DNA of 64,000 nucleotides from assembly GCA_903913645.1 (NCBI GenBank), contig CAIWMA010000393.1:10420-74419 (forward strand). Reading direction: 5' to 3'. Under the pieces are notes generated by a model, which was not told the DNA's origin, did no database searches, and was given only the letters and a program-made list of their open reading frames with translations. The stretch comes from an uncultured Bacteroidales bacterium. Its GTDB lineage: Bacteria > Bacteroidota > Bacteroidia > Bacteroidales > UBA4417. This document shows positions 1-16,516 of this stretch, one piece after another. The translations under genes and the position numbers were made by a program. Positions within the stretch are counted from its first letter, which is position 1; the number at the start of each line of letters is the position of its first letter.

Positions 1-3000
1 GATCGATAATAACAATAAAACCATTAGGCCCGCCATCAGGGCAGGGATAAGTTGTTCCGCCTGTTTGAGTCCAGATAGTTTTATCAGTCCAGTTTCCATT
101 AGCATTACTAGTATATACCGGAATATCAGGTGGGAATGCGGAACTGATTCCTGCAGTATATTCCCCGCCAAGATTGTTTGAGCCGGTGTGATTAAAAGTT
201 AATATATTATTTGTTGCATCAACTGTATTAGTCATGCTCCAGCTGGTTCCGGGCACTATTAACCTGGCATCAAGGTAATTGCTTTCCTGAACACCCCTTA
301 CATCACTTTGTTGATAGTTGAAGGTGAGACTTCCTGTTAAACTTGTTAGTCCCGAACTAGTCACCGTCCAATAATAATCGAGGGCATTGGCAGGATCAAT
401 TACTACGGGATGTCGTTGGTTGATATTACTTATTTGAACATATCCAACAGTACTTCCTGCTGATATAGTTAAAGTTGCAGGTGTGTATTTATCCAGGCAT
501 CCGATAGGGAATACGAAGGCTGCTGATGGTCCGGCAGGGAATAGTTTACGAACTCCTTCATCGCTGAATACACCATCAGTTTTTATCATTTTATTCCAAC
601 TGTAAGGCGCTCCCTGAATATTGCTTTGCAATCCTAACGATAGCAGATTTTGATTAATGTCAAGAATACCCAGAGTAAGAACCAGGTTTTCTTCCATGGA
701 GATATCATTTAGAGCCTGAACTCCGAATCCATTATTTATTTCCAGACGCCCAAAACTTCCACTACCTGAAAGATATTGTTTTGATGCGCCAACAAGTTTT
801 ATACCTGTGTTTGCAAGATTTGAATCGGTAAACCTTCCGTTGTTAACAAAATTGCTTGACACTTGCACCAGATTCGATCCCAAAATGAGATTGCCTGAAC
901 TTAATGTCATATCATTCAATATATTACAAGTGCTATTAACTGTAAGCGTAGCTCCGGGATTCGCCTGGAGATTGTAAAAGTTAGTTGACCCGGTTATGCT
1001 TTGTGCGCCAAGATAGGACGAACTGTTTAAAGCGCTGAAAACTGTAAGGTTTGTACCTGCGATATAACCTCCCGTACCAACAGCATTTACAAAATTCCCG
1101 TTAAAAGTTGTATTAATGTTGTTTGTATTAAAAATGCTATTGGTCGATATGTTTAAATCTCCGTTCAGGATTAAAGGGCTTACCATCAGCTTAGTAGTTG
1201 CGACATTTCCTGCTGTACCTGATATGGTGAGATGATTTAAAGGTGTATTGGCATCAACCAGGAATGTTTGTGCTCCATTTGTACCCGGCGAAAATATCAT
1301 TGTGCCGCCGGTAACGTTTCCGGTTTGCGGTCTCAGGTATAAGTCGCCAAAAGTGGTTCCACCGCCTCTGATAAACGTGATTGTACCATTCGACATGGTA
1401 AAACTGCTGCCATTGTTCAATACTTCAAGTTTAGCATTTGCTGCTAGTGCTGCTTGTCCGTTAATTGTAACTGTTCCGCCGCTCTGAATGTAATTCAGTA
1501 TTCCCCCGGCATTGGAAGGATTGCGCCTGATTTGCCCGTTTACAACCAGGTTTCCTCCGCGGACATCAATTGTTGATGCACCCCCGCTTGAATATTCAAT
1601 ATCGTTGTTATTAACCGTAGTTCCGTTTGTTGGCCCAACGTAAACATTGCCATTGAGCAGCGTTAACTTTCCATAGAGATATAAGTCATTCGTATTTGAA
1701 TTGCTATTTGCAATTAGTATGTTCTTATTTCCTGTATTTGAATAATTTACATATAATCCGGCTGTTGCTGGAATAGTAAACGCGGAAGCAGCCGAAATAG
1801 TAAAATCCGATCCCGGATTGGTCCGCATATAACGAAGAGTGCCATTTTGAAGTGTAAGCCAGTTGTCTGCAAGAGTGGTTAATGCTCCTCCAATATTTAA
1901 AGTGAGTGTAGTTGCCTGCGAATTTCCTTTATTAACAACAACTTTATTTAAAATAGTAGTAGCACTGGTACCTGATATGGATGCATTGTTTGAACCCTGG
2001 AATATTAAGTCACAATAATAGCCGGAATTAAGTAATCGTACATATGGCGCGGCGCTTGAATTATTCACAAAGTTTCCGCCAATAGCCATAGTATTTGGTT
2101 GTGGAGTTCCGGCCGGCACGCCGTAAACAGCTGGTTGCATATCTATGTAGCCATTTGTGCCTACAGTAACATTTCCGTCAATAATCAGGTGCTGGGGTAT
2201 GATCTCAGGCATAAATATAAATGTGCCTGTGTTGATATTCAGATTGCCGGTTATGTGTATTGTTTTTTCAATAGTCGGATTATAAATTACAGAATTATAT
2301 GGAGCAATATTGGTGTTCCAACTCACTGCTATCCATGCATTGGCATTATCGCCTCCGCAAGTTAAATCCCCTTTAATTGTTGTTAAAGCATTATTAGGCA
2401 GAACTAAATTATCACCACCTTTTGCAGTAACCATCAGATTACCGTAAGTAGCAACATTAGAAGGTAATATATAAAGTGCACCTGTAGCCCCGTCAATATC
2501 ATAAAACTCAGTAGTGCCTTGGTTGTTGTTGAAGTCCGAAAAATCGCTGTTGGCAGGAAATGAAAACAATTTTGGTACATTGGCGCCTGTTACACTTGTT
2601 GTAAGTCGGAATAAGCCATTTCCCAGAGGATGAGTTAGCACAATACTAAATTTGCTGGTTGTCCATGTATAAATATCCAGAACGGAACCTGCCTGAATCT
2701 GTAAACTAGCACAATTGGCTGCTGCAGTTAAGTTCACTGTATTGTTATTACCTATTACTACAACATCGGTTGCTCCAGGGAATGTGGCAGCAGCAGCTCC
2801 CGTATGCTTTAAAACGGGGTCGGTAGACCAAGTTGTATTTAAATTCCATTGTGCGCTTGCACGGCTGTAAAATACGGTCGGGGCGCCAAATGGATCCGTT
2901 GCTACATCATCGCCTGCAGTATAATCTCCATCAATAATGGCAACATTTTCCAGGAAATTTCCGGTTCCGGGTTCTCCGATAATATTATTGACTTTATCTA

Positions 3001-6000
3001 CATCATTAACGGTACCCTTCGACCAGGCAAAAGTTGTATTATTAAATCTTGCTGCTACATACCCTGATTCATCTGCATCCCCGGAAGCTGCTGGAACATC
3101 ATTCTGGCTATATGTAAAACCATGGGATACTGTGGCAGATCCAAGAGTGAAACCTGTCGATTTTACATGCCAGTAATAGGTAAGGCTGCGTCCTTTAAAC
3201 TTGGTAGCCGGATGTTCGTACCCAACCGGATTAACCGTTATAGTTCCAGCGGCTGTTGGAGTGCCATTAATACTTATAGTTGCTGGTGAGTAATTTGCTG
3301 ATACATGGCTGGCTGATGGCGATCCGATAGGAAAAGTAAAAGAAACTGCTGCATTGTATACCTTACTGAGTCCTCCATCTCCAAGTACACCGGAAGTTTG
3401 TATATATCTGTTTGAATTGGCTCCTGAAATTGTAGCCAGGGCAGTTAGTTTAAGGTTATTGCTTTGAATATTAAATACTTTATAGCCGGTTGCAGAACCA
3501 GAAAAAGTGAGTGTCCCGTTTATAGTGGTATTTGAGTTTAAAACTACTGAAGCTGAACCGTTTGCAGGTTTATTTAATTCAAGATTTGAAAATTCACCGG
3601 TACCATCTCCGTCTATAGATTGGTTACCATCGTTGATCAGGACAATTTTTCCGGTTCCTGAATGAACCCCGGCATTATATATGTTACCTGACGCATTTAC
3701 TGTTTTTCCATTATCGTTCAGGCCACCTTCAATAATCATCAGGGAATCAGCAACATTCATCGAAGGTTGAGTTCCAGTTAAAGTCAACGGAATTCCAGCT
3801 GGTTTATCGATTTTAAGTTTATTGAGGTTAAGGGCTGCACCCAAGTTAATAGCAAAATTCTGAGCAGCTGATCCATTGAAAATAGTTCTGTTGCCACTTG
3901 TCCCGGTACATGTATAAGTTGTTCCTGATGCTATATTGAAATCACCGCCAACTATAATGTCCTGCAGATTAGCATCTAAAACTCCAGATTGTAAATCAAT
4001 ATTCTGGAATATTACAAGTGGGTTCGAGTTCAATGCTACCTTTGATGTGCCACTAACTCTGTTAACAAGTAGGTTTGCAAATGGTGCTTTGGAATTAATG
4101 AGGTAATCCATATCGGTACCAGTCCCGGTAATGGGTAAAACCTGAACTGTACCTCCTGTTACATTGATATTGGATGCAGGGCAACCAATAAATGCTGCAT
4201 AAGAGGTGGCTGTGGTGCCGGTAACATCATAAATTGAGATATTTCCTCCTGACATGATGAATCCATTTGCCGGATTCGTATTGAGATGAAAAGTTCCAAT
4301 TCCTGCATTTCCATCTGTTATATTTGCTCCCCGGGTTGTGTTGATCGTAGGAATAGCCAGGTCATCAGGAATTGTGTAACTGATATTATTCTGGAAACGC
4401 CCTCTTAGGATTACAGTTCCTCCGCTTTGCCTGTAGGTAATCAGCCCGGTATTAGACCCTGAACCATCATCAATTTGTTTGGTATCCAGAATCCCTCCGT
4501 TGAGAATTAGCTGTCCTGAAGAATAGCTCCAATAAAGAATCCCGGCAGATTCACGGGTTGATAAATAACCACTGTTAATTTGTAATTTACCAAGTATCGA
4601 GAGTCCGCTTACATTTGTTGCTCCGGTATTAATACCATACAATACATTTGATCCTCCGGTGAGGCTATATGCAGCCTGAACTTCAGTATAATCATCTGCA
4701 GTTGAAAGCACTATAACTTCGGTTCCATCGAGTACAATCGCTCCGTTAGCAGGAATATAATAATGGGAAGCTGGCGGCCCGGCAGTTGCTCCTTCTGACA
4801 AAGAAGGGATTACGGTTAAACCTTGCAATACAAGCGTGCCATTCCTGACCCAGAGTGCTTTCTTGAGATCGGGATTAGCTACTGTTGAATTAGCACTCGG
4901 CGCGTTATTAGCGCCAAATAACCTGAAGTTTGAATAAGCATTGGAATAAACTGTTAGCTTGAATGTCTGATCTGTACCTTTATCAACGATCAGGTTATAA
5001 AAATCTGTCGTTCCGTTGCATAAGAGTTGGTTGTTGCTGCTTCCCTGGAAATAAACAGTTGCTGCACCGGTCAATGTAAAAGCATCATATTTAGGAGCAG
5101 TTTGATTTGTCAGTCTTACTGTTCCATTATTGTTGAAATCACCCTGTATTATAACACTGTGGGTTTCATTATTATAATAGTTTAAAAATGGAGCTGTACC
5201 ACCATTTGATACAGTAAGTGGAGCATCGGATCCGGTAACTGTATTACCTGTTCCAACTGTTATTGAAGCACCTGCATCAACAGTTACATTCCCCTTGATG
5301 GTAATTTGCCGTCTGTTGGCAGTTGTATTATTGATCTGGTAAGTTCCTTTTTTAACATTAAGATTACCATTAATAACCAGGTTGTTTATTTGCCTGGCTA
5401 TTTCACCAACATTGTTGATCGTAAGGTGATAATAAATTGTTTGTGAAGTTGAAAGGTCAAATGCTCCTGAAGTTTTATACTCTGTATTACCTCCATCAGT
5501 TGTTACAAATGTATTATTTGTAACCGAAGGAAAATTTGCTGAAGCCAACTGTAAAGTGCCTCCTCCGCGCAAAGCAGTAAGAGTGGTTGTAAACCTGAAC
5601 GTCGATTGATCGAGGATACCACCTGCCTGCACAGTGATATCATGATTTGTAGTGGCTACATCTGCTGTTAGTGTAACTGTTCGGCCCGTAAGAATGACAA
5701 CTTTATCTGAATTGCCTGGAAATGTTGTGATAGGCCCCGTTGATCCACCCGGATCATAGGTCCAGGTACTTGGCTGGTTCCAGTTCCCGGATTGATAGGA
5801 ATAGTAAATGGCAGTCATTGAGGTTGTTACGGTATGAGTTGAACTTAATGGTCCATCGCACCCTGTTGCCGTTGCTGTTATTACGCTTGACCCTAACCAG
5901 CCTGCAGCAAATGTAATGCTTCCTGTTGTAGCCGAAATTGTATTTCCTCCTGCAAGGCTTGCAGCATCAAGCGAATATGTAATTCCTGTATTGTTAGCAG

Positions 6001-9000
6001 CTGTTGCGGAATAAGGAAGTGTTCCTGCTCCCTGAGACCTGGATGAAGATGGTCCAAGTGCAAAAACAGGTGATCCTACCGAGGGAGTGATTGTAATGCT
6101 GCTAGTAGCCGATACAAGGGAGCATCCGCTGGCAGCAGGGATTGTATTTGTAACTACATAAGTACCAGCAACACTGGCTGCCAGATTTATCTGACCGGTA
6201 GATGTATTTACGAAAACCAGGCCGGTACTTGAAGAAAAAGTTCCAGCTGTTCCGCCGCCACTTAATGTTGGAACCGGGTTTGCTGCTCCCTGGCAATAGG
6301 GACTGCCTGTATAACTGAAAGTTGCAACAGGAGCAGGATTAATCGTAACTGTGATAGGGTAACCTATACTTGAGCAAACAGGGTAAGTGGTAGCAACTGT
6401 TAGTATGCCGTTATACGTGCCTGGTGTAATATTCCATGGTACATTAATTGAGATAGGACTGGCTGGTAAACCCCAACCTGGAATATCACCTAATCCGGCG
6501 GTATTGGCTGCTGCATCGAAATCAATACTGAAAGCTGAAGGGCTTCCGGTAGTTGCCGAGTAAGTGAGGAGAGCAGAAGTAACACCGCTGCATATGGATG
6601 GGTTTAGTCCAAGAGTAATTGTTAATGTTGGATTTACCGTCATTGAAAAGCTGGTTGAATACAGTGCAGGACAACTACCACTCTGTACCAGGGCACGATA
6701 TTCCCAGATTCCACCTGAAGAAGGGGTCTCGGAATAGGTGGTTGATGTATTCGAAATATTTGACCAAGCTCCTGAGTTAAGCCGCTTCTCCCAGCGTGTA
6801 ATAGTGCCTGTGCTTCCATTCAAAGTAAATGTACCTGTCGAAGAACCTTCACAAATAGGGGTTGAACTGCCGCTTATCCAACCCCCAACTGTATTTGCAT
6901 CAACTGAAATTGAAGTTACAGCTGAGTAGACAGATGCGCAAGTTCCGTTTTGAATTAATACTCGGTAATCCCATGTGCCAGCTGCAAATGGTAATTCAGA
7001 AAAGGTAGAATTACCACCGTTGCCAACATTTATCCAGCCTCCTGAATTTAGCTGGTGCTCCCATTGTACAATTGAACCGGCAAAACCTGCCTGCGTTAAT
7101 GTGCCTGTGCCTGCACCAAGGCAAAGAGGAGATGCGCTACCTGTAATAGCTCCTCCTGTTGAACTGGGATTGATCGTAAGAGCAGTACTGGCATCATTTG
7201 CGGAAAATAAGTTTGCGTTTCCGGAATATGCAAATGAGATGGTAAAAGGTGACCCTAAAACGGGAATAGTAGCCGAGGTGTAGTTAATAGAAAATCCCCC
7301 GGTACCATTTGTGATAGAAGTATTTTGAGTATTTCCATTTATCGTAACACCAATTGCTTCACCTATGGCTGGATAAGTTGGTCCGACAGCACTTACAGTT
7401 CCAGCAAGCGTTATTGTTGACGTTCCAAAACATATACTTTGGCTGGCAGTAAGCCCGGAAAAAGAAGGAGAAAGGGATCTGGTATCCGTAGTAACCGTCA
7501 AAATTCCTGTTGTTGCTGCAAAATAAACATTATCTTTATTTGTAGCTGCAGAAGAAGATGATCCCCAGGTGCCGTTTATTTTATTAAAAGTGGCTAGTTT
7601 AAGAGTTCCTACACTAATATTTAATCCCCCGGTTATATTCGCTGAAGCTCCATTGATTAAAAGATTTCCTGAAACAGCGGTTCCTGTGGTAATAGTTTTT
7701 GCTCCACTCCCGGAAAAAATCAGGTTGTTGTAAGTAACAGCTCCAATTGTTTGTGCACCTGCAGCATTCCATTCAACTGTTCCGCTATTGGCCGTAAAAG
7801 TTCCAGTTGTTCCACTAACACTGCCTCCAATTTTTAACAGACTTGATCCGCCTTCCAGTGTGCCATTTGTTCTTGTCCACGCTCCTGTAAAAATATGGGT
7901 CAAACCGATTCCCATGTTTAGTGTTCCTCCTGTTCCGTTAATTGTTAGCCCCGCACCGCTCACATTTCCGGTAAAAGTAGCTGTGCCGGCAGTTTTTGTC
8001 ATAGTAACAGTTCCTGTAGTAGAAAATCCAGCAATACTCTGGTTTGCTGTTCCACCAATTGTTACTCCTCCTGCCGCACCGCTAACAGAAACACCATTAT
8101 TAAAAAGGTCACCATTTAATGTTAATAAAAACGATGACAAAGCAAAAGTTATGTTGGTATTGACTGTTAATGTTCCGTTAGTGGTAGTAGCTGCACTTAA
8201 GGTCTTAGTACCAGAACCGGAAAGTATGAGATTCGAATAATTTAAGCCTGCAACATTTTGGTTGGCAGCATCATAAATAACTGTCGAACCTGATAGAAAA
8301 GTATTAGTTGTATAATTTGTAGGAAATGTGCCGCCAATAAGCAGTATACTTGTGCCGTCAATACTTAATGTACCACCGGCAGCACTTCGGTTTGCAGTAA
8401 AAGTAGCCAAATCGAGGGTTGCACCTGTTTGTATTGTAAGATTTGCTCCAATAGTGGTATTAGCTCCTAATGTTTTGACTCCAGAATTAGAAGCAATAAG
8501 ATTATTGTAGGTAGCTCCCCGAATAATTTGTGCGCCCGTACCATTATAGTTTACTGTTCCGGTTCCACATGTAAAAGTACCTGTAGATGTATTATTGCCA
8601 GCAATATTAAGAGTTCCAGTTCCTATTGTCAGTGTACCGCCTCCCGACATGATGCCGGACATTGTAAGTGTATTGGTTCCTATAGCTAAAGTTACTAATC
8701 CCGGAGCTGAATTCATTGTTACATCACCAATATGACTTGATGTAGCTAAATTATAAGTCATTACTCTGGCAGTAGCATTAGTTGTAAGAAGAACTACATT
8801 GTGAATATCACCAGCTGTTTCTCCGACGTAGCCAGTCTGACCTGGATATGTAGCATTTGTTGCTGCCCCTGATTTTACCCAGCCCGCTGTATTCCAGGTT
8901 GTTCCAGCAGTCATGGTTCTGGTAAAAGTTGTTTGCCCCCATCCCAATGTACTTAGCCCTGAAAAAACAAATAAAACAGCGACAAACAATATCGTCTGCA

Positions 9001-9052
9001 AATTTAGTCTACAAGTGGATTTTGTTTTTTCTATAAGCATATCAAGAAACAT
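1..9052 (-). CDS. giant secreted beta-helix / Ig-like repeat surface protein (adhesin-like); 5' end present, 3' end truncated by the window edge (>3000 codons)
   Basis: Absent from the ORF track because it has no stop inside the window. Manual minus-strand translation from ATG 9052 (or ATG 9040) gives [43 protein letters not shown] (signal peptide), then G/T/N-rich [12 protein letters not shown] / [14 protein letters not shown] beta-helix-like repeats. The same frame (codon top coordinate = 1 mod 3) was spot-translated at ~7090, ~6800, ~6300, 5821-5762, 3178-3161, 2878-2822, 379-359 and 121-59 and read as sensible protein with no stops. An in-frame stop would have produced a listed minus ORF starting at 9052/9040, and none is listed. 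An in-frame TAA at 9080-9082 bounds the 5' end. The P/V-rich plus-strand ORFs at 1248-9125 are its antisense shadow. Confidence 0.8.
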
Positions 9053-9060
9053 CGACAGCA

Positions 9061-9068
9061 CAAAAGTA
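9061..9068 (-). promoter_or_regulatory. candidate Bacteroidota sigma-A -7 box (TACTTTTG = TAnnTTTG) upstream of the giant gene
   Basis: The minus strand reads TTACTTTTG at 9069-9061, an exact match to the Bacteroidetes -7 consensus TAnnTTTG. A TTTA lies about 20 nt upstream (9085-9088). The motif sits in the 85-bp gap between the chaperone stop and ATG 9052; given the spacing, ATG 9040 would then be the more likely start. Confidence 0.3.
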
Positions 9069-9137
9069 ACTGGATTTAATTATATAAAGTTTGAGAGTCT
9101 ATGGAGAGCCTGTAAAGGCCTTTAAGTGGGAAATAAA

Positions 9138-9995
9138 TTATTTTATAACAAATTCCTTTTCAGCGTATATCTCGGCTTTACCATCATTAGGTGCCTGGAA
9201 TTTAATCACCAGTTTCCCTTTGGAATAATCAACCCCGGGAACCTTGTGTAACTGCATTTTAAATTTACGGGTTTTATTAGGCGTGTATACTGCTATACCA
9301 CGTACAACTCCAACTTCAACCGGTTCTTTTTGTGCAGTAGCCCATAATACGGAAAGATCTCCATATACAGATTTATCACCAGTACGCTCAAATGTTATGG
9401 TAAGATTTGGTACGGTGTCACTTTTTACATCGAGATTTATAGCTGTAATGTCAACTTTTGCCTGCAGATCCCCATTGCGGATAATTACTGGAATGCTGAT
9501 ACCAAATATTGGTACGAGTTTTATACCAATAGAAGTTGTATCATTTGTAACTTGTTCTTCACCCAGAAGTTTCTCTGCCGGCACTGCCCTGAAATAAACA
9601 TGCGAGCGATATTCTCCGTTTTGCATATCCGGCATTTTGCGGTACTGCATTCGTATTACTTGGGATCCATTTGGAGGCAGAGTGACTGAACGGGGGAAAA
9701 ACCTGAGATATTTGTCAGCAAACAGCTGACCTTCTTCAGGTTGTTCAATCTGAACGAAACTTCCGTCCTCAGTCATCCTGTACTGTACAAAGGAGACGGT
9801 ATATTTTGCTGTATCAGCACCAGTATTGGCAAGAGTAAGTTCCTGCGAAAGCTTATTGCCTTCAAAAACAACCCTGCGTGGAGTAATTAACAAATTCCCC
9901 TGAGCGGTCGATTGATTGCTTACTAAAACTAATGCAAAAAAGATTGCCAGAAGGTAAAATTGTGCGATTCTGCTTTTGATTCCGGTATTTGTCAT
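9138..9995 (-). CDS. PapD-like periplasmic pilus/fimbrial chaperone (two Ig-like domains)
   Basis: ORF track 9138..10016 begins with a TTG; the first ATG is at 9995 (MTNTGIKSRIAQFYLLAIFFALVLVSNQSTAQG, signal peptide). The mature N-terminus NLLITPRRVVFEG..QELTLANTGADTAKYTVSF and the later FFPRSVTLPPNGSQVIRMQY and ISIPVIIRNG resemble the A1, F1 and G1 strand signatures of PapD_N-type chaperones, including an Arg at the equivalent of the subunit-carboxylate-anchoring Arg. The size fits two domains. Confidence 0.65.
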   Translation of the reverse strand: MTNTGIKSRIAQFYLLAIFFALVLVSNQSTAQGNLLITPRRVVFEGNKLSQELTLANTGADTAKYTVSFVQYRMTEDGSFVQIEQPEEGQLFADKYLRFFPRSVTLPPNGSQVIRMQYRKMPDMQNGEYRSHVYFRAVPAEKLLGEEQVTNDTTSIGIKLVPIFGISIPVIIRNGDLQAKVDITAINLDVKSDTVPNLTITFERTGDKSVYGDLSVLWATAQKEPVEVGVVRGIAVYTPNKTRKFKMQLHKVPGVDYSKGKLVIKFQAPNDGKAEIYAEKEFVIK

Positions 9996-10390
9996 GGCTC
10001 GTGAATTTTTCTTCAAACTTACATAATTTTTTTGACTCGGGGCATTGAAGTCCCAGCCATATCAATACGCAGTCATACAAGCTTCCGGAGTAATTATAGA
10101 GAGTACTATACTGTTAATAGTCAATGAGCTATTATGTAATATGGTTTTCATTAAAAAACCTTTGTTAATGCGATGTTTTTTGTAAAAGGCATTTTCCAGA
10201 TTGTTCAAAGTCACCCATGTAGTCAAAGAGCTGGGAATTTTTACTATCGTAATATGCTCCGCAATGAATTAAAAAGTTAATGAGCTCCGTAGTAATCTGC
10301 TGTTCACTTTTATTGCAATGACCGTATTCAATATGATTTACTGTTTGAAAAACGGGAGGCCAGAATTCGACCTTGAGAAATTATTATATA

Positions 10391-10424
10391 AAAAAAAGGG
10401 TGGAAGGAAAAACCATTCACACCC
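10391..10424 (-). terminator. Rho-independent terminator after subunit gene 10447..10959
   Basis: The minus strand reads GGGTGTGAATGG-TTTTT-CCTTCCACCC followed by T7-8 (plus-strand A-run 10391-10397). The stem has two single-nt bulges. It begins about 20 nt after the stop codon. Confidence 0.7.
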
Positions 10425-10446
10425 TTTTTTATATTTTTTGTATTAC

Positions 10447-10959
10447 TTAGTTGTAGTTAACAGTTACGTCAAAAGGAGTGCCTGATACATAAGTTCCTGC
10501 AGCTTGTCCTGCAGCTACATTTAAAGTCGCACCAACATCTACAGTTTGAGTTCCAGCAGCGCTTAATGTACCGGTTGTTGCAGGTACGCTTGTAAATGAA
10601 TTAACTGACATCGTATTAGTTCCTGATGTTACAGTTGTAGCTGTTGAAGGAAGCGTAATGGCATAAGTGTAATTGGCTGTACCTGTTATTGCAAAATGTG
10701 CAGCGGTTACTATACCGGGAACAGCTGGCAGAGTAACACCTCCTGTGATTGATCGTGTGCTTGCTGGAGCAAGAACTACAGTACCACCGGTTGCGCTAAC
10801 GGCTACATTACCGAAATTCATGTCACCGGAATTAGCAATAGCAATTGGAGTTACAATAGTGCCTGTAGCAGTTGCATTAGCTGTAACCTGAGCGTTAACG
10901 CTTAAAGAAGCAATTGTTATTAGAGCGATAAGCGAGAAAAGGATTGAGAAATTTTTCAT
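10447..10959 (-). CDS. DUF4402 / spore-coat-U(Csu)-like secreted fibre subunit, class 1 paralogue A
   Basis: 170 aa. Signal peptide MKNFSILFSLIALITIASLSVNAQ, then an alternating T/A/V strand (VTANATATGTIVTPIAI), a DMNFGNV motif and a T/A/G-rich body ending GATLNVAAGQAAGTYVSGTPFDVTVNYN-COOH. About 80% identical (my manual alignment, about 28 differences over about 147 mature residues) to 12703..13215. Confidence 0.7.
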   Translation of the reverse strand: MKNFSILFSLIALITIASLSVNAQVTANATATGTIVTPIAIANSGDMNFGNVAVSATGGTVVLAPASTRSITGGVTLPAVPGIVTAAHFAITGTANYTYAITLPSTATTVTSGTNTMSVNSFTSVPATTGTLSAAGTQTVDVGATLNVAAGQAAGTYVSGTPFDVTVNYN

Positions 10960-11027
10960 TGTTTTGATTTTTTTTTTTGAGTTTCTATTAGTTGGATTTA
11001 AATCGTTTTGAGCGATGCTAAATTAAA

Positions 11028-11043
11028 TTCATAAACCGTGCCA
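11028..11043 (-). promoter_or_regulatory. candidate sigma-54 type (-24/-12) promoter: TGGCACGGTTTATGAA
   Basis: The minus strand reads TTGGCACGGTTTATGAA, ending about 70 nt upstream of ATG 10959. The -24 half (TGGCACG) is perfect. The -12 half is ATGA instead of TTGC. The identical 16-mer recurs at 13283-13298 while the flanking sequence has diverged. A second TGGCACG lies at 11067-11061 with an even poorer -12 half. Confidence 0.5.
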
Positions 11044-11195
11044 AGTACTTTGAAATAGTGCGTGCCAAAGTCGAATATAGTTATGTTAAATTAGTTAAGT
11101 GTCATATGATCAACATTTTAAAAATTTATATATTTTATTTGATAAAAAATATTGATGTTAAATTGATAAAACACTAACGGAAAAATGTTATCATT

Positions 11196-11216
11196 TTGCG
11201 ACAAAGCCATTCGCAA
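11196..11216. promoter_or_regulatory. candidate enhancer (UAS) palindrome TTGCGA-N9-TCGCAA
   Basis: Perfect 6+6 inverted repeat with a 9-nt spacer, embedded in the conserved context AATGTTATCAttTTGCGAcaaagccatTCGCAAATTGAGAT. It starts 153 bp upstream of the TGGCAC box. A near-identical element sits at the same relative distance upstream of the paralogous gene (13452-13472). Confidence 0.5.
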
Positions 11217-12052
11217 ATTGAGATTAATATATATGATTCTTCATATCTCACTTCCTCTCACCCTAGACTGGCTGGATTCATTTTGACCAATATTAAATAA
11301 GTTTTTGGTTCATATTCCGAACTTCAGAATTTGGTTTCTTGTCGTTGGTATAAAGTGTTGCGTTTAATTGTATTGCAGGTTGTAAATATGTTTTTGTGAC
11401 CTATACGCCTACTGAATTTAATTTGCAGGCAATGTTATCGATTGAAATTTAAATTTAATAACAAAACTGTAACCGTTGAATGAATATGAATTTAAGAATT
11501 GAAAAGTTTTTTGACTTTATTTAGAGTAGTTATCTCGGAAGAACAAAGGAAATTAGGGATTTTAAACCCTTAACCCAGTTTAAACTTATTACTATTTTTA
11601 TTGAAATAGGAATTAATTGCTGAATATCTAAGGGTAAGTAAGTACTATAAATATATTTTTGATTTCTTTACTTTGTTTGTGATTTTTTTTGGATAAATGA
11701 ACTTAAAATCATTTGTTTGCCCAAACAGCTTTGAGATGCCTGGTTTATTGTGCAAAACCACCAAAGGATTAAACCTTTGATGGTAGTGCGGCTCAAAAAC
11801 AACGAATTATTCCAACTCTTAATTCGTATTTATAATGTTTTTGTTTCTTTTCTGTGATAGGATATATTTGCTGAATTGGGACATCCAAGTTTTAAAGATC
11901 CTAAGTTGGTTTATTATAATGAAATAGATTTTAAAACACTAATTTTTGCATTTGAAATAAGCCTGATGCAGATAATACAGCAATAAGTATTAAATCAAAC
12001 TGTGCCTGGTGATAAAGTTATATTTTAAGGTACCAATTAAAAGTGTTGCATA

Positions 12053-12073
12053 TTGAGACAGAGTCTTTCGCAA
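12053..12073. promoter_or_regulatory. degenerate third copy of the UAS-like palindrome (TTGAGA-N9-TCGCAA)
   Basis: One mismatch in the left half-site, same 9-nt spacer, and a partly similar left flank (AGTGTTGCATA vs AATGTTATCAT). It lies just 3' of the stop of 12088..12597. No matching TGGCAC box was found at the expected distance. Confidence 0.25.
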
Positions 12074-12087
12074 AAAAAGAAAAAGGT

Positions 12088-12597
12088 CTAGTTGTAAGCA
12101 AATGTCAGGTTAAAAGCCCCGGAATATAATCCAACCGGATTATCAATCATTGATCCTACATTTAGAGTGGCACCCAAGTAAACAAACTGCTGTCCATTAG
12201 CTAGAATACCGGTTCCGTTTCCTGCCTGGGGATAAGAAACCCAATTGCTGACTAACATGGTTTTAGATGATTTTTGATGGACCAGCACTGCAGGGCCGCT
12301 AGGCAGTTGTATTGAAAAAGCTGCATCAGGCGCACCGGTAATATAAAAAATCCCTGAGTTAGCAATTCCCCCGCTCAATATTACCGATCCGCTTGTGGTA
12401 CGTATTCCGTCAGGAGTAACAATAACCTGTCCTCCCTGTACTTCTGGAGAAAACTTACCGAAGTTTAGCTGCGAGGTTTCAGTGGCTGTTAAGGCTGATA
12501 TTACTTCGGCAAATGCTTGGGCTGTAACACTTGCTTGGCTGTAGGCCTTAAATGAAAAAGAAACAATAACGAGTAATATGATTGAGTATCTGAACAT
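12088..12597 (-). CDS. DUF4402 / SCPU-like secreted fibre subunit, class 2 (divergent)
   Basis: 169 aa. Signal peptide MFRYSIILLVIVSFSFKAYSQ, then ASVTAQAFAEVISAL..QLNFGKF, ending GATLNVGSMIDNPVGLYSGAFNLTFAYN-COOH. It shares the LNFG motif, the GATLNV motif and the terminal YN with the class 1 subunits. Confidence 0.65.
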   Translation of the reverse strand: MFRYSIILLVIVSFSFKAYSQASVTAQAFAEVISALTATETSQLNFGKFSPEVQGGQVIVTPDGIRTTSGSVILSGGIANSGIFYITGAPDAAFSIQLPSGPAVLVHQKSSKTMLVSNWVSYPQAGNGTGILANGQQFVYLGATLNVGSMIDNPVGLYSGAFNLTFAYN

Positions 12598-12650
12598 AAA
12601 ACTAGTTTGTAATTAAAAGTATTGTAGTCAATAGTTAAAAAAGAGGATAT

Positions 12651-12682
12651 AAAAAGGGTGGAATGAACATTCATTCACACCC
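12651..12682 (-). terminator. Rho-independent terminator after subunit gene 12703..13215
   Basis: The minus strand reads GGGTGTGAATGAA-TGT-TCATTCCACCC followed by TTTTTATATCCTCTTTTTT. It begins about 20 nt after the stop. The stem sequence is related to the terminator at 10391-10424. Confidence 0.7.
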
Positions 12683-12702
12683 TTTAAAAACTTTATGTTG
12701 TA

Positions 12703-13215
12703 TTAGTTGTAATTAACAGTAACTTGGAAAGGTGTGGCGGAAACGTATGTGCCGGCAGCCTGGTTGGAAGCAATATTTAATGTTGCACCTACATCAATTG
12801 TTTGGGTTCCGGTCCCACTTAGTGTTCCGGTAGTACCAGGATTACTTGTAAATGCAGTAACAGTCATAGTATTAGCACCCGATGTAACCGTAGTTGCTGA
12901 GGATGGAAGTGTAATAGAATAGGTATAATTCGCAGTACCAGTTACAGCAAAATGAGCAGCTGTAACAGTTCCTGCAACAGCGGGAAGTGTAACGCCTCCG
13001 GTAATTGTCCGGGTACTGGCAGGAGCAAGGATAACAGTTCCTGCTGTAGCACTAACAGCAACATTACCGAAATTCATGTTACCTGAATTTGTAATTGTAA
13101 TAGGAGTGATGATAGTTCCTGTTGCGGTTGCAGTTGCAGAAACCTGTGCGAAAGAAGTAGTAGCGAATCCGAGAACTACTAAGGCAATTGCAATTAGTTT
13201 AGTGATGTTTTTCAT
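12703..13215 (-). CDS. DUF4402 / SCPU-like secreted fibre subunit, class 1 paralogue B
   Basis: The track ORF 12703..13299 starts at an ATG that is itself part of the ATGGCAC promoter-like box. The realistic start is ATG 13215 (MKNITKLIAIALVVLGFATTSFAQ signal peptide), giving 170 aa colinear with 10447..10959 and ending GATLNIASNQAAGTYVSATPFQVTVNYN-COOH. Confidence 0.7.
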   Translation of the reverse strand: MKNITKLIAIALVVLGFATTSFAQVSATATATGTIITPITITNSGNMNFGNVAVSATAGTVILAPASTRTITGGVTLPAVAGTVTAAHFAVTGTANYTYSITLPSSATTVTSGANTMTVTAFTSNPGTTGTLSGTGTQTIDVGATLNIASNQAAGTYVSATPFQVTVNYN

Positions 13216-13282
13216 TTGATTGAGTTTGTTTAAAGTTATTTTTGAGTTGGATTTAATTCGTTTTGAGCGACGAAAGGTAAAT

Positions 13283-13298
13283 TTCATAAACCGTGCCA
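13283..13298 (-). promoter_or_regulatory. candidate sigma-54 type (-24/-12) promoter: TGGCACGGTTTATGAA
   Basis: Identical 16-mer to 11028-11043, about 70 nt upstream of ATG 13215. It is followed by a conserved leader segment CGCTCAAAACGA(A/T)TTAAATCCAACT that is also present upstream of 10959. Confidence 0.5.
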
Positions 13299-13451
13299 TA
13301 ACTTATTAGATAACTTGGTTAAGAGGAGAAAATATTTGAAAATAAATTTATAAATACCATATAATCAATACAATAATGATTAATGAGAATGATTTACAAA
13401 ATAATAAATATAAAAACCTAAATATGTTTTTTTTGAAACAATGTTATCAAA

Positions 13452-13472
13452 TTGCGACAAGTTAAATCGCAA
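13452..13472. promoter_or_regulatory. candidate enhancer (UAS) palindrome TTGCGA-N9-TCGCAA
   Basis: Context AATGTTATCAaaTTGCGAcaagttaaaTCGCAAATTGAGAT. It starts 154 bp upstream of the TGGCAC box, against 153 bp in the paralogous unit. The DNA between the box and the palindrome is otherwise unalignable AT-rich sequence. Confidence 0.5.
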
Positions 13473-13619
13473 ATTGAGATGTATGTGGCCAGAAAATTGT
13501 TTTAGAAATAGAGTAATCGGTACAATTACCAGGAAAGCCTTTTTGGAATTACCGCACTGAAATTTATTGGCAGGAAATGTTGCTATATGAAATGAGAAAG
13601 GTATCTGAAAAGAAAAATA

Positions 13620-14048
13620 TTAATTGTATGCCAATACTATATTAATATTCCCTGCATACACTGACGAACTTTGATCCAGATTGCTATCACCAGGAAAGCA
13701 TTGCAGATTAATGGATTGAGATCCGTTTATTGCGTTGGTTTCAAATCCAAGGGCACTGTATGCCGAAGTTTCCATAGCAATTTGTTGATTAGTACTGCTT
13801 GTTAGCATTGCTCTGCCTAATATTAAAGAACACGAAGCTGATTCAGCACTTTTTATTTGAATTTGTCCAAAATTAATTCCTTCAGTTTGGTTACGTTGAA
13901 TTGTAAAAGTAGATTGTGAAGTTGAACTGGCACTAACTGATTCTACCACTTCAGCAAAAACGTGTCCCTGAACTGTTGTTTGGGCATATCCTGCTACTGA
14001 AGTAATCGTAAGAAGTATAAGGATTATATAAGACAAATACCGTTTCAT
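13620..14048 (-). CDS. DUF4402 / SCPU-like secreted subunit, class 2-like, short, two Cys
   Basis: 142 aa. Signal peptide MKRYLSYIILILLTITSVAGYAQ, then TTVQGHVFAEVVESV (compare AQAFAEVISAL in 12088..12597), GINFGQI, ending SSSVYAGNINIVLAYN-COOH. It is the only paralogue with cysteines (SASCSL, NLQCFP). Confidence 0.55.
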   Translation of the reverse strand: MKRYLSYIILILLTITSVAGYAQTTVQGHVFAEVVESVSASSTSQSTFTIQRNQTEGINFGQIQIKSAESASCSLILGRAMLTSSTNQQIAMETSAYSALGFETNAINGSQSINLQCFPGDSNLDQSSSVYAGNINIVLAYN

Positions 14049-14172
14049 GATGTAAGAAATATTTGCAAACTGTTTATTTTTTGTTCTGCTAAGTTAATGG
14101 AGCAGAAGAGCTTTGACAAATAATCTGAGTAATATATTTTTTATTGATGTTGAATATAATAAATATAAAATT

Positions 14173-14215
14173 AAAAAACACCTAGAAATCAACACATTAG
14201 AGCTGTCCTAGGTGT
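14173..14215 (-). terminator. possible terminator after the response-regulator gene
   Basis: The minus strand reads ACACCTAG-(22 nt loop)-CTAGGTGT followed by TTTTTTAATTTT. The 8-bp stem and large loop make it weak. Confidence 0.35.
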
Positions 14216-14349
14216 AAAATAATTATTTCAATAATGTAAATATAATTTACTCATGAAAAACTTTACCTGGTAAGATTATGATAAGAATATCTGTAAACCG
14301 GAGATTTTGTGAGTAAATTTTACTTGTATTTTATAAATTATGTCATTAA

Positions 14350-15699
14350 TTAGTTTGGCGTAATGCCGTATTTTTCGATTTTGGCGTTTAAGGTTGGCCT
14401 GGAGATACCCAATACACGTGATGCTTCCACTTTATTCCATTTAACCTGGGTTAATACCTGCTTGATATAAACTTTTTCAACTTCGTCCAGGGTAGTAAGT
14501 TCTGTAATCGATATCCCTGCCATGGTCTGGGAATTCTGCGGAATAGTAATATTGTCCTTTTCCAGAGAACTTCCTCTGCCAACTATCATTGCCTGTAAAA
14601 TTAAATTCTCAAGTTCCCTGATATTTCCCGGCCAGTCGTAGTTTTTAAGTTTCTCGAAAACCCCTTCACTAACCTGATTGATGTTTTTCTGAAGTTTGCG
14701 GTTGTATCGTTGGATGAAGAAATAGGTCAGCTCGTTGATATCGTCTTTACGCTTACGTAAAGGTGGAAGATCAATAGTAAATACTTTAAGCCTGTAATAA
14801 AATTCCTCACGAAAACGTCCATCTGCAATAAGTTGTTCCAGATTTTTGTTGGTGGATGCAATTATTCGAGCTTTGAGAGGCAGAAGTTCAGGGTTTCCTG
14901 GTTTTTCAAATTCCATATCCTGCAAGATTCTAAATAGTTTCACCTGGAAATTATCAGAAAGATTTGAGATTTCATCCAGGAAAATAGTGCCTTCCCCTAC
15001 AGTTTCAAATTTCCCTCTTTTGTTCTCCTTAGCGCCAGGAAATGCATCTTTCTCATAACCAAAAAGTTCCTTCTGAAGCATGTCGTCATTTAAGGATGAA
15101 CAATCAATAGTTACGAAAGGAAAATCGCGGGTAATACCGCTATGATGAATAAGTTTTGCTATCAATTCCTTACCTGTACCAGTTTCCCCGGTGATAAGCA
15201 CATTGATTCTGTTTAATGAAATACGCCCAATATTCTTGAAAATTTCCCTCATAATAGGAACTTTTCCTATCAGCGAGTTTTCTTCTATCATTTTACGTGT
15301 ATCACGGGTAAATGGTTGCGAAACACTGAGGTTTTGTTCACTTATTTCAAGCGTTCGTTTTATAACTTCAATTAATTCTTTTGAATGGATTGGCTTTTCA
15401 ATAAAGTCGACTGCTCCAAGTTGTATCGCTTTAATGGTAAGTGCGACATCACCGTGACCTGTTAAGATAATTATAGGAAGTAATGGCTGATTTTGTTTTA
15501 TAATACTCAGTACTTCGATTCCCGACATTCCCGGCATCATATAGTCGGTAAGCACAAGATCAACCTGAGATGTTGCCAGCAATGTGATGCCTTCTTCTCC
15601 ACTGGTAACTGTAAAAACACGATAGCCTGCCTTGGTGAGTGTTTGCTTCAGTATCATTAGGATCATATTGTCATCATCAATGACTAATATTGTTTTCAT
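14350..15699 (-). CDS. NtrC-family response regulator (REC + sigma-54-interaction AAA+ + Fis-type HTH) with variant L1 loop
   Basis: 449 aa. REC domain (VIDDD, DLVLTDYMMPGMSG, EKP). AAA+ domain with Walker A GETGTGKE, Walker B GTIFLDEI, RFREEFYYRL and PPLRKRKDDI. C-terminal HTH NKVEASRVLGISRPTLNAKIEKYGI. The GAFTGA signature reads ELFGYEKDAFPGA. No histidine kinase gene is adjacent. Confidence 0.85.
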   Translation of the reverse strand: MKTILVIDDDNMILMILKQTLTKAGYRVFTVTSGEEGITLLATSQVDLVLTDYMMPGMSGIEVLSIIKQNQPLLPIIILTGHGDVALTIKAIQLGAVDFIEKPIHSKELIEVIKRTLEISEQNLSVSQPFTRDTRKMIEENSLIGKVPIMREIFKNIGRISLNRINVLITGETGTGKELIAKLIHHSGITRDFPFVTIDCSSLNDDMLQKELFGYEKDAFPGAKENKRGKFETVGEGTIFLDEISNLSDNFQVKLFRILQDMEFEKPGNPELLPLKARIIASTNKNLEQLIADGRFREEFYYRLKVFTIDLPPLRKRKDDINELTYFFIQRYNRKLQKNINQVSEGVFEKLKNYDWPGNIRELENLILQAMIVGRGSSLEKDNITIPQNSQTMAGISITELTTLDEVEKVYIKQVLTQVKWNKVEASRVLGISRPTLNAKIEKYGITPN

Positions 15700-15761
15700 A
15701 GGTATAATATAAGGTTAATTTACTGTTTTGGAAATACTTTCATTTGAAATGCGGTGATAAA

Positions 15762-15795
15762 TTTACAAAATGTTCTTTACCTTTTACAAAATGTT
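15762..15795. repeat. 13-bp direct repeat TTTACAAAATGTT x2, 21-bp phasing, upstream of the regulator gene
   Basis: Copies at 15762-15774 and 15783-15795, 63-96 bp upstream of ATG 15699. The AAATGTT core recurs next to the UAS palindromes (AATGTTATC at 11185, 11431 and 13440). Confidence 0.5.
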
Positions 15796-15919
15796 GTAAA
15801 AATATATTACTATTTTAATTAAATTGAACATATCGATTCAGGCAGGAATACGGTTATTGTAAAATCTAGTATATGTTAACTGAATTAGAAAATATATAGT
15901 TATCCGACTTTTGCACAAA

Positions 15920-16516
15920 TTAATACGTTGCCATCAGAAATCCACCCGTCAAAATAGTTAAAAGAATAACAAATCCGGATCCCATGGCAAATCCGCCCCA
16001 AACCTTCTTCTTTTTGATAGCATGAGCAGTTTTTGTATAGCCGTCATAATAACTCAGGTTTTCCATTAGTTTCGGGTCCTTGTATCCCAGGTTTTTCATT
16101 GAATTGGCTGGATGGGTAGCGGAACAAGCAATAGCAGGAATCACTCCAAACGGGAAATACAAACTGGCGATCATTGTTCCGATTGCTGCAGGTTTATAAC
16201 CTTTATAATTAATTTTGGCATCATTAACGCCCAGGGTATACAGACTGTCAGTCCCTTGCCTGCTATCAGCTACAGGTATTTCATTTTCAGATAGATATAT
16301 AACAATTCCACTATGATATTTAAGGCTTGTAATGTCTTGACGTAAAAGAGATGTGGTATCAAAACTATTTTCAGCAATAAAAGTAATATCATTTGGATTA
16401 AACTGAATAATCCGGACTTTCATTTCCCCGCCCGATTTAAGAGTAATTACATCCTGAGCTGAAACAATACAAATTCCGGCGAAAGCCAGAAATAAAAACA
16501 CAAATATTCTCATCAT
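15920..16516 (-). CDS. hypothetical membrane-associated protein
   Basis: The track ORF starts at a TTG (16540); the first ATG is at 16516 (MMRIFVFLFLAFAGICIVSAQD signal peptide). It has a hydrophobic C-terminal segment and no family I recognise. Confidence 0.5.
   Translation of the reverse strand: MMRIFVFLFLAFAGICIVSAQDVITLKSGGEMKVRIIQFNPNDITFIAENSFDTTSLLRQDITSLKYHSGIVIYLSENEIPVADSRQGTDSLYTLGVNDAKINYKGYKPAAIGTMIASLYFPFGVIPAIACSATHPANSMKNLGYKDPKLMENLSYYDGYTKTAHAIKKKKVWGGFAMGSGFVILLTILTGGFLMATY

Follow-up and report, generated by a model that had tools for sequence, protein, structure and literature searches.

At NifA-activated nifH promoters a site for integration host factor (IHF) lies between the upstream activator site (UAS) and the promoter, and in the PilR/PilS-sigma-54 systems of Pseudomonas, Myxococcus and Geobacter the pilA gene is largely transcribed alone, with an NtrC-family regulator upstream and a terminator after it, an arrangement by which the major subunit comes to outnumber by far the products of the assembly genes. 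In the GAFTGA loop of bacterial enhancer-binding proteins (bEBPs) the phenylalanine (Phe) and the threonine (Thr) are held to be essential for contact with sigma-54, and the Thr has been linked to the sensing of promoter DNA near position -12. In the literature the motif is treated as invariant, and pipelines for regulon prediction filter candidates by it (PMC12316311). Bacteroidota do use sigma-54: the promoters mapped in Flavobacterium psychrophilum include typical -24/-12 ones, one of them confirmed by mutagenesis, and the remFG-sprCDBF giant-adhesin operon of this species has a sigma-54 promoter (motif SM4) with typical -24/-12 elements (PMC9723704). Here we describe a 64-kb stretch of DNA from an uncultured Bacteroidales bacterium (contig CAIWMA010000393.1, positions 10,420 to 74,419; hereafter the window), in which a complete gene-control cassette occurs in two old copies, both maintained by selection, next to the gene for an NtrC-type activator. 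Each copy comprises a putative activator-binding site, a probable bending site, a proposed sigma-54-type promoter, a conserved mRNA leader, a gene for a DUF4402 subunit and a terminator.

An earlier note on this DNA had reported that the two paralogous 'class-1' subunit genes are preceded by an identical 16-mer and, further upstream, by a perfect palindrome, and that these islands look selectively maintained. Both genes encode 170-aa proteins assigned to DUF4402 by Pfam (gene A, with a signal peptide, at 12703-13215; gene B at 10447-10959; both on the minus strand). The 16-mer, TGGCACGGTTTATGAA, has exactly two matches in the window, promoter A at 13283-13298(-) and promoter B at 11028-11043(-), and no further match appears in the 64 kb even when three mismatches are allowed. 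It lies 68 nt (A) and 69 nt (B) from the start codon and 154 and 153 nt, respectively, from the palindrome TTGCGA-N9-TCGCAA, which is matched exactly at 13452-13472 and 11196-11216. Past the 16-mer a variable 10-nt gap is followed by ~30 nt of leader conserved between copies A and B. The stretch between box and palindrome had been called unalignable; this holds for most of it, but a conserved TTGAT(T/C)ATATG, which we call the mid island, sits at a fixed position within it (A, TTGATTATATG, 13358-13368(-); B, TTGATCATATG, 11103-11113(-)).

The null for comparing A with B is neutral divergence after duplication, not chance. The class-1 paralogues share 74% protein identity and are identical at 35% of their four-fold degenerate sites (31/88), i.e. 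these sites are saturated, and identity in the inter-island DNA is 40-44%, where base composition predicts 35%. The islands, in contrast, retain 16/16 positions in the 16-mer, 85% in the leader, 83% in the central 12-mer of the mid island and 78% in the UAS block. Since four-fold sites are saturated and inter-island DNA is near random while the islands are near-identical, all four islands are under purifying selection.

Further copies bear this out. A subunit profile scan, with one genome per species, yielded 80 loci across Bacteroidota, among them three loci from uncultured Bacteroidales (L001-L003) that are orthologous to the window (regulator 95% identical in protein, DNA ~83%). Both cassettes are present in each of L001-L003, and one cassette each in L041 and L055, giving a protein-ascertained set of 10 copies from six genomes; all of them show the four islands, identically ordered and in ungapped register. 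A metagenome scan with the 16-mer plus eight leader bases added 16 more contigs; these copies are ascertained on the promoter and TCGCTCAA, whereas their UAS, mid island, remaining leader and terminator are independent of ascertainment. The total is 27 distinct cassette copies on ~20 contigs. When they are stacked without gaps on TGGCA (cassette positions are counted from its T as 0), the islands appear in every copy, whereas no alignment is possible across the intervening DNA; this holds for orthologous and metagenomic loci alike, and it is the comparison that the earlier note had proposed as a check. Because A-type and B-type cassettes are each orthologous across the window and L001-L003, the duplication predates these genomes. 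What that note had observed was thus right, and most of its interpretation stands; corrections, given below, are needed on what the UAS is, how many islands there are and how far the transcription units extend.

Across copies the promoter box has the consensus TGGCAYRGTTTRTGAA. Its -24 half is canonical: TGGCAC with the invariant GG of sigma-54 promoters is found as TGGCAC(G) in both window copies, and TGGCAY is present in 10/10 protein-ascertained copies. The sigma-54 spacing GG-N10-G (G2G3...G14) is kept in every copy and in other lineages. The -12 half had rightly been flagged as non-canonical: it reads ATGAA in both promoters, with T and G kept and A in place of C. In several further Bacteroidota lineages, too, DUF4402 genes have similar boxes 54-97 nt upstream of their ATG. 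Among independent DUF4402 lineages the GG/TG spacing is constant while spacer and flanks vary (TGGCACACTTTCTGAC, TGGCACACATTGTGAC, TGGCACAATAAATGTT, TGGCACGGTATGTGCA, TGGCACGTCGTTTGCT, TGGCATGCAAATTGAA), and some of these boxes are fully canonical at -12 (TTGCT and GTGCA versions). In ~1 Mb of fetched Bacteroidota DNA there are 25 intergenic, correctly placed TGGCAY-N6-TG boxes, 22 of which precede DUF4402 genes; their -12 element is TGA in 19, TGC in four and TGT in two. The proposed sigma-54 assignment rests on this geometry and recurrence. The E. coli pspG promoter TGGCATGATTCTTGTA (TTGTA), a bona fide sigma-54 promoter, also has no C at -12 (PMC12316311, S10 table), and the Bacteroidia rows of the S1 Table of the same paper, '1 27 27' under headings that are not shown, are taken here as rpoN in 27/27 sampled genera.

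Other near-matches to a sigma-54-like box in the window all fall inside coding regions. An extra TGGCACG box lacking a -12 partner lies 24 nt upstream of promoter B (11061-11067(-)). Extra TGGYAY boxes upstream of the main one, seen in the window, L041, L055 and the L085-L100 set, occur at -24 to -26 in 16/27 copies and at -13 or -15 in nine, with at least one extra box in 17/27; none has a rightly spaced -12 partner and none occurs in A-type cassettes. In some copies the extra boxes form a TGGCA-box array with a period of roughly 13 bp.

The palindrome described before proved to be the core only of a 37-bp composite dyad. UAS-A, ATCTCAATTTGCGA-N9-TCGCAATTTGATAA(CATT), occupies 13441-13480(-), with its core at 13452-13472, and UAS-B, ATCTCAATTTGCGA-N9-TCGCAAAATGATAA(CATT), occupies 11185-11224(-). 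The consensus of 20 distinct UAS sequences, aligned without indels, is ATCTCAWTTTGCGA-N9-TCGCAAWTTGATAACATT. The dyad is made of two 13-bp near-palindromes, TCKCAW-N-TTGMGA, with centres 22 bp (about two helical turns) apart. Its outer parts (TCTCA, TTTG, TTGA.A) are kept at least as well as the inner TTGCGA/TCGCAA, of which several copies have broken versions (TTGTAT, TTGAGA, TCTCAA). In 25/25 copies the GTCKCAW anchor stands at -158 to -160 from TGGCA, with no indels within the UAS; a UAS-promoter distance that is constant to ±1 bp is what a face-of-helix constraint on looping would predict. In the ~1 Mb of fetched DNA, the L084 locus discussed below included, the 13-bp motif is exclusive to these upstream positions. 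Our reading is therefore that the UAS holds two dimer sites side by side, the usual layout of an NtrC-type enhancer, and is the candidate binding site of the activator; bEBPs typically use a dyad-symmetric site 80-200 bp from the promoter, and the predicted 37-bp dyad is such a site. A third, degenerate UAS-like site, TTGCGAAAGACTCTGTCTCAA, lies at 12053-12073(-), just past the stop of the 12088 gene, with one mismatch to TTGCGA-N9-TCGCAA; an akin TGTC(G/A)CAAATTGA site is found at the same place in L001 and L003 and not in L002.

The mid island was identified from the ungapped stacks and has the family consensus YTGATTATC, found at -70 from the T of TGGCA in 23/27 copies, roughly halfway between UAS and promoter and flanked by the A/T tracts ATTTTTA and TTTAnAAA. 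From its position it is a candidate bending site, or a site for an architectural protein. By inspection, it does not fit the proteobacterial IHF consensus, WATCAANNNNTTR, on either strand. Since the element is conserved and central, a different architectural protein or an intrinsic bend is possible.

The leader has the consensus CATCGCTCAA(A)ACGATTTAAATCCAACTAA and follows the variable 10-nt stretch 3' of the box (leader A, CGTCGCTCAAAACGAATTAAATCCAACTCAA, 13242-13272(-), counted from the predicted +1; leader B, CATCGCTCAAAACGATTTAAATCCAACTAAT, 10987-11017(-)). Across the 27 copies the 30-nt leader, CATCGCTCAAAACGATTTAAATCCAACTAA, is conserved above the level of coding sequence. If the A that replaces C-12 is taken as position -12, the predicted +1, 12 nt on, is the first leader base, so that the conserved block gives an indirect hint of a start at this place. 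We considered and rejected an RNA element here: the sole hairpin has a folding energy of -2.0 kcal/mol in leader A (z -1.8) and -1.1 kcal/mol in leader B (not significant), no better than shuffled sequences, and Rfam gave no match over window positions 9000-16000. Because the hairpin is so weak, the conservation is likely to act at the level of sequence; a factor binding site and a terminator read-through signal are both possibilities. The leader includes TCGCTCAA, which resembles the UAS half-sites TCGCAA and TCTCAA.

The earlier note had placed an NtrC-class activator gene at the head of the locus, and this is what Pfam finds at 14350-15699(-): a protein with REC (5.4e-33), Sigma54_activat (PF00158, 5.6e-55), AAA-lid and Fis-type HTH_8 (1e-12) domains. 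Residues 3-446 of its 449 align to Aquifex aeolicus NtrC1 (4l4u, 1ny5), free of gaps in the AAA+ core. Walker A and Walker B are intact, so that the protein combines the AAA+ and HTH domains expected of a bEBP, and the HTH region is highly conserved across its clade. Genes of the same family adjoin loci L001-L003, L024, L065, L066 and L084. The claim that the two promoters are targets of this regulator is supported by its REC/AAA+/HTH make-up, the fixed UAS spacing and the linkage; it has become less safe with the finding that the sigma-54-contact loop of the protein reads DAFPGA.

On balance we consider it probable, though well short of certain, that these are sigma-54-type promoters activated by the adjacent response regulator. 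Each copy would be an expression cassette complete in itself, in which an enhancer-dependent promoter of sigma-54 type drives the gene for a major DUF4402 (fimbrial-like) subunit. The phosphorylated regulator would bind the 37-bp dyad, whose centre lies ~164 bp before the TGGCA box (about -190 relative to the transcription start), as two dimers and assemble an ATPase ring, and the AT-rich intervening DNA would loop this ring onto RNA polymerase-sigma-54 held in a closed complex at TGGCAYGGTTTRTGAA. YTGATTATC at the midpoint of the loop would probably help, either by binding an HU/IHF-like protein or by bending the DNA intrinsically. Transcription would then start ~12 nt past the -12 box, on the first base of the conserved 30-nt leader; most transcripts would stop at the hairpin-plus-U terminator after the 170-aa gene, and read-through would serve the genes for the minor subunit, the chaperone-like protein and the giant protein.

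Several findings weigh against this model. At -12 the doublet is GA, where TTGCW promoters have an invariant GC, and no rpoN gene was found within the 64-kb window. In place of the GAFTGA that marks a bEBP, the L1 loop of the regulator (codons 15031-15048, minus strand) reads DAFPGA: the Phe is kept and there is no indel, while Pro stands in for Thr and Asp for the first Gly. The Thr is absent from 120/120 of the nearest homologues (Bacteroidota, 55-95% identity), in which GAFPGA (54), DAFPGA (23), GAFAGA (9) and DAFAGA (5) are the recurrent loops; the residue at the Thr position is Pro, Ala, Ser, Val or Leu, and in a few homologues no loop can be recognised. A Thr-to-Pro change was reported to inactivate Bradyrhizobium japonicum NifA, and DVU2960 of Desulfovibrio vulgaris, a natural GAFPGA protein and the only one for which we found this loop mentioned in the literature, has no assigned regulon (PMC4641369). 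Finally, one of the homologues with an unrecognisable loop is the regulator (8001-9359) of the L084 locus, which is 62% identical; it carries KPGNPE in the loop position.

The DUF4402 genes of L084 (10223 and 11491) nevertheless keep TGGCAY...TTGAA boxes (TGGCATGCAAATTGAA, TGGCACACTAATTGAA) and the 13-bp palindrome, at other distances (about -135 and -110); the left 13-mer of the UAS is kept (TCTCAAATTGCGA; perfect, TCTCAAATTGAGA), while the second arm is differently spaced or degenerate. It is mainly because L084 retains promoters and palindrome despite its KPGNPE loop that we hold down our confidence in this model. In the same locus a near-canonical box, TGGCACAATTTGTGCA, lies at 679-694, 64 nt upstream of an unrelated 222-aa gene, which suggests that sigma-54 promoters with GC at -12 may coexist with the TGA type in this genome. 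We also searched for co-variation between loop type and -12 element and found none: TGA promoters also stand beside regulators with GSFTGA (L004 and L048, TGGCACACCGTTTGAT) and GSFTDS (L024, L065, L066) loops, and Lentimicrobiaceae DUF4402 promoters with GC occur as well (TGGCATGAATTTGGCA; L010, L017).

The loop findings bear on an alternative in which the promoter is genuinely sigma-54-dependent and is remodelled by a canonical GAFTGA activator encoded elsewhere, while the adjacent GAFPGA-type protein serves as a UAS-bound modulator or repressor, or as an assembly nucleator. The inactivity of the Thr-to-Pro form of NifA (PMC4641369), the relaxation (P/A/S/V/L) or loss of the loop within the regulator clade and the retention of the L084 promoters next to a KPGNPE regulator would all fit. 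We nonetheless regard this as unlikely: the ATPase motifs of the adjacent regulator are fully conserved, beyond what DNA binding alone would demand, the regulator gene is closely linked to the cassettes in both L001-L003 and L084, and the cassette conserves no second UAS-type motif besides the mid island.

Activation by the adjacent regulator could also bypass sigma-54 altogether, the 16-mer being an operator or an element for another sigma factor, e.g. Bacteroidetes sigma-A with a TAnnTTnC-like box downstream. Rhodobacter capsulatus NtrC acts on the housekeeping polymerase, the L1 loop here is without its defining Thr, the GC at -12 is missing, and a weak TAnnTT(T/A)C-like pattern does occupy a fixed place between 16-mer and leader. 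This version strikes us as quite improbable, given that conservation is complete for the TGGCA box and poor for the TAnnTTTG-like box (TACCTTTC, TAATTTAG, TATATATC, TGAATATC, TTAATTAC), that no TTTG -33 element lies at a suitable distance, and that unrelated DUF4402 lineages also have GG-N10-TG, with spacers of their own and in part as fully canonical TTGCT and GTGCA versions. The sigma-A reading downstream of the 16-mer was rejected for its poorly conserved pattern and want of a suitably placed -33 TTTG, and a reading as a promoter for an extracytoplasmic function (ECF) sigma factor for its wrong spacing and poor conservation (CGTC in one copy, CATC in others); a generic sigma-70 scan gave 21 matches against 21.9 in shuffles.

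That the identical islands are functionless leftovers of a recent duplication or gene conversion has next to no chance of being right: the two genes are paralogous and could in principle have inherited shared upstream sequence, but saturated four-fold sites, inter-island DNA at the random level, a duplication older than the split of the window genome from L001-L003 and islands kept in 27 distinct copies refute neutral inheritance.

The transcription units, too, probably differ from what had been proposed, namely two long units, one from 13215 through 12088 and one from 10959 towards the chaperone and giant genes. Less than ~20 nt past each class-1 stop there is an intrinsic terminator, in which an A-run leads into a GC-rich hairpin followed by 5-8 U (terminator A, 12648-12685(-), with an GGGTGTGAATG/CATTCCACCC hairpin and U5, -18.1 kcal/mol, z -4.26; terminator B, 10390-10430(-), with U8, -19.2 kcal/mol, z -4.27). 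The terminator is kept in all other copies with an intact 169-172-codon open reading frame (ORF), and its stem shows compensatory changes (GGGTGTGAATG/CATTCCACC, GGTGTGAAAGA/TCTTTCACACC, GGTGCGAAAG/CTTTCGCACC). With a conserved terminator directly after each class-1 gene the long units are doubtful; because this hairpin is strong and followed by its U-run, the main transcripts are probably monocistronic subunit mRNAs. No TGGCA box stands before the 12088 gene or the chaperone-like and giant genes; their transcription would need read-through or promoters other than those found here. With an A-run, a hairpin and a U-run each, terminators A and B are possibly bidirectional.

A pair of tandem terminator-like hairpins with U-runs lies at 11754-11830(-), 81% conserved in L001-L003 (the second at -21.3 kcal/mol, z -4.98). 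It is the only conserved block in a 1.1-kb gene-free spacer, has no Rfam match, and is the probable end of unit A.

The class-1 ORF ends in TVNYN. The gene at 12088-12597(-) encodes a second-class DUF4402 subunit of 169 aa (Pfam) and has no promoter box of its own. From its sequence, with a signal peptide, an NFG motif and AYN at the C-terminus, we read the gene at 13620-14048(-), between the activator gene and UAS-A, as coding for a short, divergent DUF4402-like subunit of 142 aa; no TGGCA box precedes it. A 134-139-aa gene follows the activator homologue in L081 (9737-10156), L083 (9800-10216) and L084 (9631-10035), and such a small gene is kept even in Lentimicrobium-type loci that have none of the rest of the cluster. 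The 9138-10016 protein has weak PapD_N and Fn3-like Pfam matches and is chaperone-like. The giant ORF (window positions 2-9079, minus strand) has more than 3000 codons, runs off the window start and begins with a signal-peptide-like N-terminus; its L084 counterpart has weak fn3 and G8 matches only. Pfam and NCBIfam gave no matches for the giant ORF, the 142-aa ORF and a 206-aa ORF. The AlphaFold model of the subunit (mean predicted local distance difference test score, pLDDT, 59) is too poor for a fold search, a PDB sequence search with the subunit found nothing, and we found no paper that mentions DUF4402. In L001 (6571-7131) and L003 (6571-7117) another copy of the gene for the 169-aa minor subunit comes after the second cassette; in the window this place (9990-10390) has ~350 nt with no ORF, and it seems that the gene was lost or never gained here.

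Set beside glnAp2-NtrC and nifH-NifA, the cassette shares GG and TG at the -24/-12 spacing, a dyad UAS 100-200 bp upstream that apparently holds two tandem dimer sites, and an adjacent regulator with REC, AAA+ and Fis-type HTH domains; as at nifH-type promoters, a conserved element stands midway, at the place of IHF. It differs from both in having TGA instead of TGC at -12 and DAFPGA instead of GAFTGA in the loop, in a mid element off the proteobacterial IHF consensus and in its host, an uncultured Bacteroidales. Unlike in usual sigma-54 promoters, the first 30 nt predicted to be transcribed are conserved. Because both the GC at -12 and the Thr of GAFTGA are replaced, the cassette is a variant of the NtrC/NifA-type enhancer-dependent promoter and not a plain member of that class.

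In its logic, the cassette would resemble PilR-sigma-54 control of pilA, in that a gene for a major filament subunit is predicted to be monocistronic. Its products, however, are not type IV pilins but DUF4402 proteins with Sec signal peptides, accompanied by a gene for a weakly PapD-like chaperone; there is no adjacent sensor kinase gene, and the cassette is tandemly duplicated. The remFG-sprCDBF operon comes from the same phylum and likewise has a sigma-54-type promoter before surface or adhesin genes that include one for a giant protein, in line with the theme that sigma-54 controls the cell exterior, but its genes are unrelated, and neither a UAS nor an activator was described for it (PMC9723704). 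For DUF4402 surface-filament-like genes, which are widespread and uncharacterised, our analysis provides a testable regulatory model in uncultured Bacteroidales: it names an activator, its probable binding site and a promoter, and it points to likely control of subunit stoichiometry via cassettes of promoter and terminator.

The closest parallels to the regulator itself are DVU2960 and the NifA mutant, in which Thr has likewise given way to Pro in the sigma-54-contact loop of an otherwise intact bEBP. DVU2960, however, is a single orphan lacking a regulon and the NifA form is an inactive laboratory mutant, whereas here Thr-less loops are clade-wide, down to homologues of 55% identity, and the clade is linked to conserved -24/-12-like promoters. 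We put forward, tentatively and as somewhat less than an even bet, that a widespread Bacteroidota clade of bEBPs with Pro or Ala for the GAFTGA Thr still activates -24/-12-type promoters, commonly with TGA at -12. If this is true, the lineage has a re-wired interface between activator, sigma-54 and the fork junction; in a bolder form of this idea, at which the L084 regulator hints with its unrecognisable loop, the ATPases would drive TGGCA-box promoters by a route independent of the L1 loop. Should the pairs be functional, a filter that takes GAFTGA as invariant would systematically under-detect Bacteroidota activators and their promoters. For the sigma-54 field, the pairing of a Thr-less activator clade with promoters that deviate at -12 is a natural experiment. 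Compared with the known systems, the promoter module itself is of the expected kind, and it is this clade, together with its TGA promoters, that is the part worth taking to experiment.

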